The notes under the pieces: model-generated
What the model was told of the DNA's origin: nothing
Database searches by the model: none
The model's input: only the letters and a program-made list of their open reading frames with translations
Translations under genes and position numbers: made by a program
Shown here: positions 15,100 through 15,300 of the stretch, piece by piece
Position numbering within the stretch: position 1 is the first letter of the stretch
Layout of the letters: every line of letters starts with the position of its first letter
Assembly: GCF_054482525.1 (NCBI RefSeq)
Contig: NZ_CM137006.1
DNA length: 64,000 nucleotides
Strand: one strand, 5' to 3'

Positions 15100-15135
15100 A
15101 GGGCGCGCATATTAACTTTGTAACGTCATAGAGTC

Positions 15136-15300
15136 AAAGAAAAAGGCAGCCTGTGGTTGCCTTTTGCCAATAATTCGCACACATTGCGGGTTACTGCTTT
15201 ATTTTCGTTCAGTGCTGATAACGAACATCAACCTGCAAAACGAAGCGCATAGTTTAAAATGGCTATCATCAATACGCTATATCTGATGGAAAAAAATATG
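15136..15300 (-). ncRNA. sraB: Candidate small RNA SraB (boundaries approximate)
   Basis: Intrinsic terminator (GGCAACC-ACA-GGCUGCC then UUUUUCUUU on minus strand, + coords about 15134..15161) sits about 36 nt upstream of yceD start; SraB reported in the yceF-yceD intergenic region (recalled); 5' end not determined. Confidence 0.4.

Follow-up and report, generated by a model that had tools for sequence, protein, structure and literature searches.

The small RNA (sRNA) SraB, also known as PsrD and pke20, was first described in 2001 (Argaman 2001, as cited in PMC8313858). In E. coli K-12 MG1655, it is annotated as the ncRNA gene sraB (b4418) at 1146589..1146757, between yceF and yceD, the gene order being yceF / sraB / yceD / rpmF / plsX. 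A discrete SraB transcript has been detected by re-analysis of RNA-seq data (PMC7967276), in PMC8313858 and, as cited in that paper, by Argaman 2001. The RNA binds the protein ProQ in vitro, as seen by HDX, SAXS and gel shift, and is enriched in ProQ co-IP (PMC5393179). A discrete SraB RNA bound by ProQ is also supported by PMC6156199, and in SEC-seq PsrD/SraB co-elutes with ProQ ligands, outside the ribosome-associated cluster (PMC9808575). In Salmonella, SraB is repressed >4-fold by ppGpp (PMC3963941). Its function has proved elusive: E. coli SraB has no established target or phenotype (PMC8313858), its overexpression had no effect on biofilm or motility (PMC4606813), and the sole cited phenotype is that of a Salmonella Enteritidis mutant, which is sensitive to egg albumen (Jiang 2010, as cited in PMC7967276 and PMC3963941).

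Two other groups of RNAs invite comparison. Ligands of ProQ are characterized by an A-rich 5' flank and by a terminator hairpin with 2 bp or more, followed by four or more U (PMC7367173). SraB resembles the ProQ RNAs with A-rich terminator flanks, such as SibA-E and the cspE and malM 3'UTRs (PMC7367173), in the pairing of an A-run with the U-tail, in a tail of at least 4 U and in a structured body. The Sib RNAs, however, are antisense antitoxins with a known target, whereas SraB has neither a known target nor a demonstrated ProQ-dependent output. The second group is that of sRNAs derived from leaders or attenuators. SraB is like these in its same-strand position upstream of yceD-rpmF, its intrinsic terminator and its documented read-through, but it differs in having no anti-terminator fold or leader peptide and in the separate yceD promoter downstream of its terminator.

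The window analysed here is a stretch of 64,000 nt of an E. coli chromosome (NCBI RefSeq assembly GCF_054482525.1, contig NZ_CM137006.1). An initial annotation, made from the sequence alone, had proposed a candidate sRNA at 15100..15297, bounded by a terminator and lying in the divergent gap between yceD and yceF, and had suggested SraB as its likely identity. The gap is as described, with the yceD ATG at 15099 (minus strand) and the yceF start at 15298 (plus strand), and the name is correct. The covariance-model search that the annotation had called for, an Rfam scan of the whole window, matches RF00077 (SraB) end to end on the minus strand at 15304..15136, model positions 1-169 of 169, with 209.8 bits against a gathering score of 130 and E = 6.8e-44. 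K-12 b4418 lies at the same place, and 168 of its 169 bases are identical in the window (99%), the single difference being in a hairpin loop. The RNA is flanked by yceF and yceD and shares the strand of yceD, as judged from the ORFs and the K-12 annotation, and it has a Rho-independent terminator at its 3' end, where a hairpin is followed by UUUUUCUUU up to 15136. In locus, strand, neighbours and sequence the window shows no difference from SraB / PsrD / pke20 (RF00077, b4418). The locus is therefore the gene for the known enterobacterial sRNA SraB. K-12 b4418 and the locus in the window are one and the same gene, whose transcription start site (TSS) downstream of the annotated 5' end has also been published. 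Of 5426 complete E. coli genomes, 5424 contain the 351 nt surrounding the locus, most of these genomes with an identity of >=99%.

The best explanation overall, to which we assign a probability of about 0.85, is that SraB starts at about 15244, ends at the terminator at 15136 and carries a ProQ-type 3' module. Identity, the limits of conservation and the conservation of structure come from the present analysis; the transcript, its TSS, ProQ binding, read-through and ppGpp repression come from the literature. The comparison set was the yceD neighbourhood of 80 species of Enterobacteriaceae and relatives together with five loci from Erwiniaceae, Pectobacteriaceae and Yersiniaceae, 85 other loci in all, and the region aligned was the 300 nt upstream of yceD. 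The features discussed are collected in Table 1.

Table 1. Features at and around SraB, in window coordinates
Feature	Position	Strand	Description
yceD CDS	14578..15099	minus	first gene of yceD-rpmF, downstream of SraB on the same strand
yceD promoter	15109..15137	minus	TTGACT (15137..15132), 17-nt spacer, TAATAT (15114..15109), then GCGCGCCCT before ATG; consensus scan and conservation
SraB as annotated	15136..15304	minus	169 nt; Rfam RF00077 match and K-12 b4418
109-nt SraB form	15136..15244	minus	favoured as main primary transcript by conservation and published TSS mapping
Intrinsic terminator (hairpin of the initial annotation)	15136..15165	minus	AAAA flank, GGCAaCC-ACA-GGcUGCC stem-loop, UUUUUCUUU tail
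Near-invariant block CCGCAAUGUGUGCGAAU	15173..15189	minus	contains mini-hairpin CGCA/UGCG (15188..15176); 97.5% of cells paired
5' stem-loop of 109-nt form	15204..15244	minus	within 56-nt insertion (about 15192..15247)
SraB promoter -10 TAAACT	15251..15256	minus	putative promoter element, followed by G+C-rich discriminator; kept in 80/81 sequences
TAAAAT, possible -10 of divergent yceF promoter	15255..15260	plus	overlaps SraB -10 by 2 bp (15255..15256)
-10-like TAAAAT for annotated 5' end 15304	15310..15315	minus	inside yceF codons Ile5-Leu6; not conserved
yceF	15298..15882	plus	Maf-type m7GTP pyrophosphatase (K-12 b1087; MPKLIL...); divergent

The terminator is the feature by which the gene was recognized. 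On the minus strand its arms are AAAAGGCAACC (15165..15155) and GGCUGCCUUUU (15151..15141), separated by the loop ACA (15154..15152), and its U-run UUUUUCUUU occupies 15144..15136; UUGGC precedes the first arm and UCUUU follows the second. The end of the U-run is 36 nt from the yceD ATG. Both the hairpin and this distance had been placed properly in the initial annotation, but the 7-nt arms quoted there are not fully complementary, as they contain an A·C mismatch, and the stem is longer by four A-U pairs. In full, the stem has 10 pairs and the one mismatch, the lengthening by four A-U pairs with the U-run being seen both in the Rfam structure line and in the fold. Taken by itself the hairpin (35 nt) is unremarkable, with a folding energy of -11.2 kcal/mol and z = -1.6, and 15 of 200 shuffled sequences fold as well. 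Because of the mismatch, it was not called by a simple terminator scan of 14300..16100. The case for a real terminator is made by the family model and the comparison across genomes. The helix is 90% paired across distinct homologue sequences. In 51 distinct sequences from 76 loci, compensatory changes cluster at the top of the stem, and the four A-U pairs at its base are standard in 50-51 of the 51, two of them never varying.

The same hairpin has the features listed for ProQ ligands, with its 10-pair stem and A·C mismatch, a 9-nt tail containing 8 U, and an A-rich flank, AAAA at 15165..15162, that pairs with the U-tail. The SraB terminator thus carries the published signature of ProQ-bound rather than Hfq-bound RNAs, and the 3' module is presumably the part of SraB to which ProQ binds.

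The conserved functional core of SraB is its 3' half. What is shared between homologues amounts to ~53 nt and consists of a mini-hairpin, a short A/U-rich linker and the terminator with its A-rich flank. The mini-hairpin, CGCA-AUGUG-UGCG, has a stem of 4 bp and an invariant loop and flank. It is almost without variation within the Enterobacteriaceae, and an A-U pair is exchanged for U-A (CGCU/AGCG) in Dickeya, Pectobacterium, Ewingella and Rahnella. Support for the mini-hairpin as an RNA structure comes from this one covarying pair in distant families, and a DNA palindrome would covary likewise. For mini-hairpin and terminator together, 92% of cells are paired, compared with 33-54% when the partners are slid along the alignment (51 distinct sequences, 76 loci).

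The 5' hairpin of the 109-nt RNA is restricted to one clade. The distance from the -10 element to the end of the terminator is 116 nt in six of 81 sequences and 59-61 nt in 70. The long form is that of E. coli, E. albertii, Salmonella, a Citrobacter and Intestinirhabdus, and the insertion of 56 nt is limited to Escherichia, Salmonella, Citrobacter and Intestinirhabdus; a two-hairpin layout is common to Erwinia, Dickeya, Pectobacterium, Ewingella and Rahnella. Among the carriers of the long form, the insert has strongly diverged with its hairpin kept, six pairs showing two-sided changes among five sequences. A mobile or repeat origin of the insert was considered and rejected, as it is single-copy in 5332 E. 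coli genomes. That count is for a 61-nt stretch over the insert hairpin, to be set beside the 5424 genomes with the 351-nt locus; about 92 E. coli genomes appear to carry a diverged insert hairpin, the same number as fall in the 90-95% identity class.

These differences in length affect the detection of the family. The RF00077 model spans 60 nt at the 5' end that have no conservation support as RNA, and the homologues in most other Enterobacterales genera are without the middle hairpin. Short homologues score 34-90 bits on RF00077, below the gathering score of 130, which was passed only by Salmonella (193 bits) and Citrobacter (159 bits) among the 19 other loci scanned. Two further variants were seen in the comparison set. 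Three loci from Cedecea and relatives (L052, L056 and L060; about 1262..1464) have an extra segment of ~100 nt that contains a second TTAAACT block and separates the mini-hairpin from the terminator, an independent insertion elsewhere in the same RNA. A locus labelled Escherichia sp. MOD1-EC7003 (L003) has the short form and a yceF 5' region like that of Pseudocitrobacter (L023, L025) and unlike that of E. coli or E. albertii, so its label or taxonomic placement looks odd.

Where the transcript begins is indicated by a second block of conservation. The -10 element TAAACT (15256..15251) would put the start at about 15244, and the block CAT(T/C)TTAAACT to which it belongs is also present in the five distant loci from Erwiniaceae, Pectobacteriaceae and Yersiniaceae. 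In several RNA-seq data sets, transcription of SraB starts 60 nt further downstream than annotated (PMC7967276, PMC8313858), and both papers mention a product of ~105 nt in the original northerns. The 109-nt RNA folds into three hairpins with -33.1 kcal/mol and z = -2.86, its first stem beginning at nt 1. The conserved promoter has no recognisable -35 and for this reason was missed by a consensus promoter scan of 14300..16100. Its assignment therefore rests on the published TSS and on conservation, from which we infer the promoter elements that are used. The G+C-rich discriminator after TAAACT fits the repression of SraB by ppGpp. A Fur-like box has been predicted at -28..-11 of the downstream TSS (PMC8313858); this segment is variable between genera, so that the box, if real, would be Escherichia-specific.

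The annotated 5' end at 15304 is poorly supported by comparison, and the start near 15244 is favoured. A -10 of the form TANNNT is found at 15315..15310 in just seven of 81 sequences, and hairpin 1 of the Rfam model, located within these additional 60 nt, shows only 56% pairing over 56 distinct sequences and was rejected on that count as a conserved RNA structure. A transcript of roughly 150-170 nt was expected in the initial annotation, but the TSS data and conservation favour 109 nt. Full-length SraB has been reported in late stationary phase (PMC8313858). In the best model the 169-nt form is a lineage-specific addition. Its promoter could be of the sigma-S type, given the C just upstream of the -10 (GCTAAAAT) and the late-stationary occurrence of the full-length RNA.

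The SraB promoter region faces yceF. A plus-strand TAAAAT lies 38 nt upstream of the yceF ATG and, within a single conserved block, TTTTAAACT, overlaps the minus-strand TAAACT. Divergent bacterial promoters that overlap on a symmetric A/T-rich -10 block are a known type. The two elements here may form a back-to-back divergent promoter pair sharing this one A/T block, and the block could be conserved for the divergent yceF promoter instead of the SraB promoter. The locus differs from the known type in that just the start in the SraB direction is consistently seen in the cited RNA-seq (PMC7967276), the yceF-side promoter being putative.

This arrangement raises the question of whether SraB is a cis-acting antisense regulator of yceF, either through pairing of the 169-nt form with the yceF translation start or through competition and interference between promoters with overlapping -10s. 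The first 7 nt of yceF are antisense to the annotated RNA, whose 5' end thus overlaps the yceF start codon together with the whole yceF 5' region; for the 109-nt form any overlap depends on where yceF transcription starts. The 2 bp shared by the -10s (15255..15256) mean that two polymerases could not bind together, which leaves promoter competition possible, and SraB is reported to be abundant where yceF transcription is barely detectable, with mention of overlapping yceF P1/P2 promoters (PMC7967276). The form that overlaps yceF, however, depends on the -10 found in only seven of 81 sequences, and a yceF mRNA made from the TAAAAT promoter would have no overlap with the conserved forms of 109 nt and ~53 nt. 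The mini-hairpin and terminator are, moreover, far from yceF and have kept a fixed distance to yceD even after the 56-nt insertion. A role against yceF is, on balance, unlikely. At the other end of yceF, two REP-type palindromes, GCCTGATAAGGCGTTTACGCCGCATCAGGC and GCCGGATGCGACGTAAACGCATCCGGC, lie at about 15890..15985 between the convergent ends of yceF and rluC, and a Citrobacter locus (L065, 618..700) has an Rfam match to naRNA4, which is REP-derived, at a comparable position.

The 3' end of SraB overlaps the promoter of yceD, its final two U coinciding with the TT that opens the yceD -35 TTGACT. This promoter is the sole promoter-like site found by the consensus scan in 14300..16100. All 81 sequences share its hexamers and GCGCGCCCT-ATG exactly, and positions in the spacer vary, a pattern that would be expected of a working promoter. 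Transcription from it is predicted to start 2-3 nt before the ATG. No Shine-Dalgarno sequence is present before the yceD ATG, and synonymous change is almost absent from the first seven codons of yceD. These features suggest that expression of yceD-rpmF may be near-leaderless and stringently controlled. A 7-codon ORF (AUG CGC GCC CUA UGC AAA AGG UAA; 15087..15110, minus strand) begins inside the yceD -10 and runs across the yceD start in a different frame. Only transcripts reading through from SraB would contain it, and its stop is kept in nearly all loci, yet these bases are also yceD codons.

Such read-through transcripts are documented. Read-through from SraB into yceD occurs in E. coli in log phase (Argaman 2001, as cited in PMC8313858), PsrD is co-transcribed with the downstream gene in Dickeya (PMC6735904), and two yceD promoters, p1 and p2, are given in the literature (PMC13060810). 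The initial annotation had named, as grounds for abandoning its candidate, a hairpin that belonged to the leader of a longer yceD transcript. Read-through and co-transcription are indeed reported, yet they are compatible with an sRNA, and a discrete ProQ-binding RNA exists alongside.

It can nevertheless be asked whether SraB is primarily the terminated 5' leader, or attenuator, of an upstream yceD-rpmF promoter, the output of which would be read-through into yceD, rpmF (L32) and the plsX-fab genes, with the short RNA as a by-product. The same-strand location directly upstream of yceD, the log-phase read-through and Dickeya co-transcription just cited and the listing of p1 and p2 all suit this proposal, as does the E. 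coli terminator, whose hairpin contains the A·C mismatch and folds at only -11.2 kcal/mol; repression by ppGpp would, in turn, suit a ribosomal-protein operon. On the other hand, an invariant, strong-consensus yceD promoter downstream of the terminator would bypass attenuation, and the discrete RNA bound by ProQ is abundant. The folding of the RNA also speaks against attenuation. No competing anti-terminator fold was found, the minimum free energy structure of the 109-nt RNA being the same as its centroid with the terminator kept. The sole alternative pairing on a read-through transcript, a long-range one between GUGUGCG..UAUUGGC and GUUAAUAUGCGCGC just before the yceD AUG, gives a fold with z = -1.15 and is disrupted by changes on one side only (TTATT / TAATT / TAAAT); it was set aside as unsupported. 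Mutually exclusive terminator and anti-terminator folds, or a ligand- or peptide-sensing element, would mark an attenuator; SraB shows no such pair of folds and no conserved ORF. We consider a primary role as attenuator possible, if doubtful.

The overlap with the yceD promoter also bears on what kind of conservation is being observed. As the T-run overlaps the yceD -35, it sits where an UP-like element of that promoter would be. The palindrome, A-tract and T-tract might then be conserved as DNA, serving the yceD promoter as an upstream activating region or in the manner of an UP element, alongside a bidirectional promoter block, the RNA having no function of its own. The T-run does abut the -35, the invariant palindrome is ~72-88 bp upstream of the predicted yceD start, the mini-hairpin sequence is near-invariant rather than covarying within the Enterobacteriaceae, and a CRP site has been predicted, and found weakly bound, at psrD (bioRxiv 10.64898/2025.12.22.696124). 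A purely DNA-level reading cannot, however, account for the compensatory change in both hairpins: in the terminator, the upper stem keeps its pairing through compensatory substitutions and loop indels, which is a pattern at the level of RNA, and the clade-specific 56-nt insert keeps its hairpin through double changes. The abundant RNA is, in addition, specifically bound by ProQ. A Fis-type site centred about -72 from the yceD start was tried as a candidate; the fit is partial in E. coli and fails in Erwinia, where the outer G/C positions are lost. Conservation solely as DNA is very unlikely.

The proposal that SraB encodes a small protein can be dealt with more briefly. There are two candidate reading frames, one of 16 codons (AUGUGUGCG...) with its stop just past the terminator and one of nine codons (AUGUUCGUU...), but neither has a Shine-Dalgarno sequence. 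The longer frame is broken in other genera by 1-nt loop indels and early stops (e.g. GGCAGCCTGAGG), the shorter lies in the non-conserved insert, and in SEC-seq PsrD falls among ProQ ligands, outside the ribosome-associated cluster (PMC9808575). The frames not being conserved, this reading was rejected, and we regard it as extremely improbable.

If SraB acts as an sRNA, the targets are not evident from base pairing within the window. The 109-nt RNA was compared by RNAduplex with the 148 translation-start regions in the window (~1.4% of the genome), and the best scores, -62 to -47, were matched by those of shuffled SraB, -62 to -49, the trivial antisense overlap aside.

Elsewhere, the Rfam scan of the window gave matches above gathering to rne5, the RNase E 5' UTR element (17165..17501, plus strand, 260 bits), the PyrC leader (39199..39248, plus strand), ES036/CssrF (48379..48421, plus strand) and ES056 (59293..59384, plus strand). 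In the rpmF-plsX region of two of the other loci, sub-threshold matches on the plus strand to V_AS5 (Vibrio antisense RNA 5) were found, at L050 2250..2372 (57 bits) and L023 2218..2340 (42 bits), the gathering score being 96.

Put together, the preferred account of SraB as a ProQ-type sRNA would run as follows. RNA polymerase would start mainly at about 15244, from a promoter of weak consensus that is strongly conserved, and transcribe toward yceD. Most polymerases would stop at 15136 to give the 109-nt RNA with three hairpins, the 3' module of which would recruit ProQ, and a minority of transcripts would continue past the mismatched terminator into yceD-rpmF. In late stationary phase, an E. 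coli-specific promoter inside yceF would give rise to a longer form of 169 nt, which starts at 15304.

A broader and more speculative suggestion, which we think rather unlikely, is that the unit under selection throughout the Enterobacterales may be the ~53-nt module of mini-hairpin and ProQ-type terminator set directly against an invariant, near-leaderless yceD-rpmF promoter with a G+C discriminator, rather than the 169-nt RNA. SraB would then be a growth-rate (ppGpp)-coupled element tied to the synthesis of the ribosome or of L32 and YceD, acting either as a leader that senses feedback or as an RNA bound by ProQ and regulated together with the operon, and the 56-nt 5' hairpin would have been added in Escherichia/Salmonella.

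Four points are without a statement in the literature consulted: the ~53-nt core, the clade-limited 56-nt insertion, the short homologues below the Rfam threshold and the tight overlap with the invariant yceD promoter, which is probably near-leaderless. These are refinements useful in the search for the function of SraB and do not amount to a new kind of element. The locus is a case in which a real sRNA gene could be recognized from a terminator just upstream of a gene on the same strand, and standard Rfam annotation misses its shorter homologues in most enterobacterial genera. Among orphan sRNAs, SraB is one of the longest known; it is abundant and conserved and binds ProQ, and its function is best sought in the block at 15173..15189 and the terminator module, and not in the annotated 5' 60 nt.
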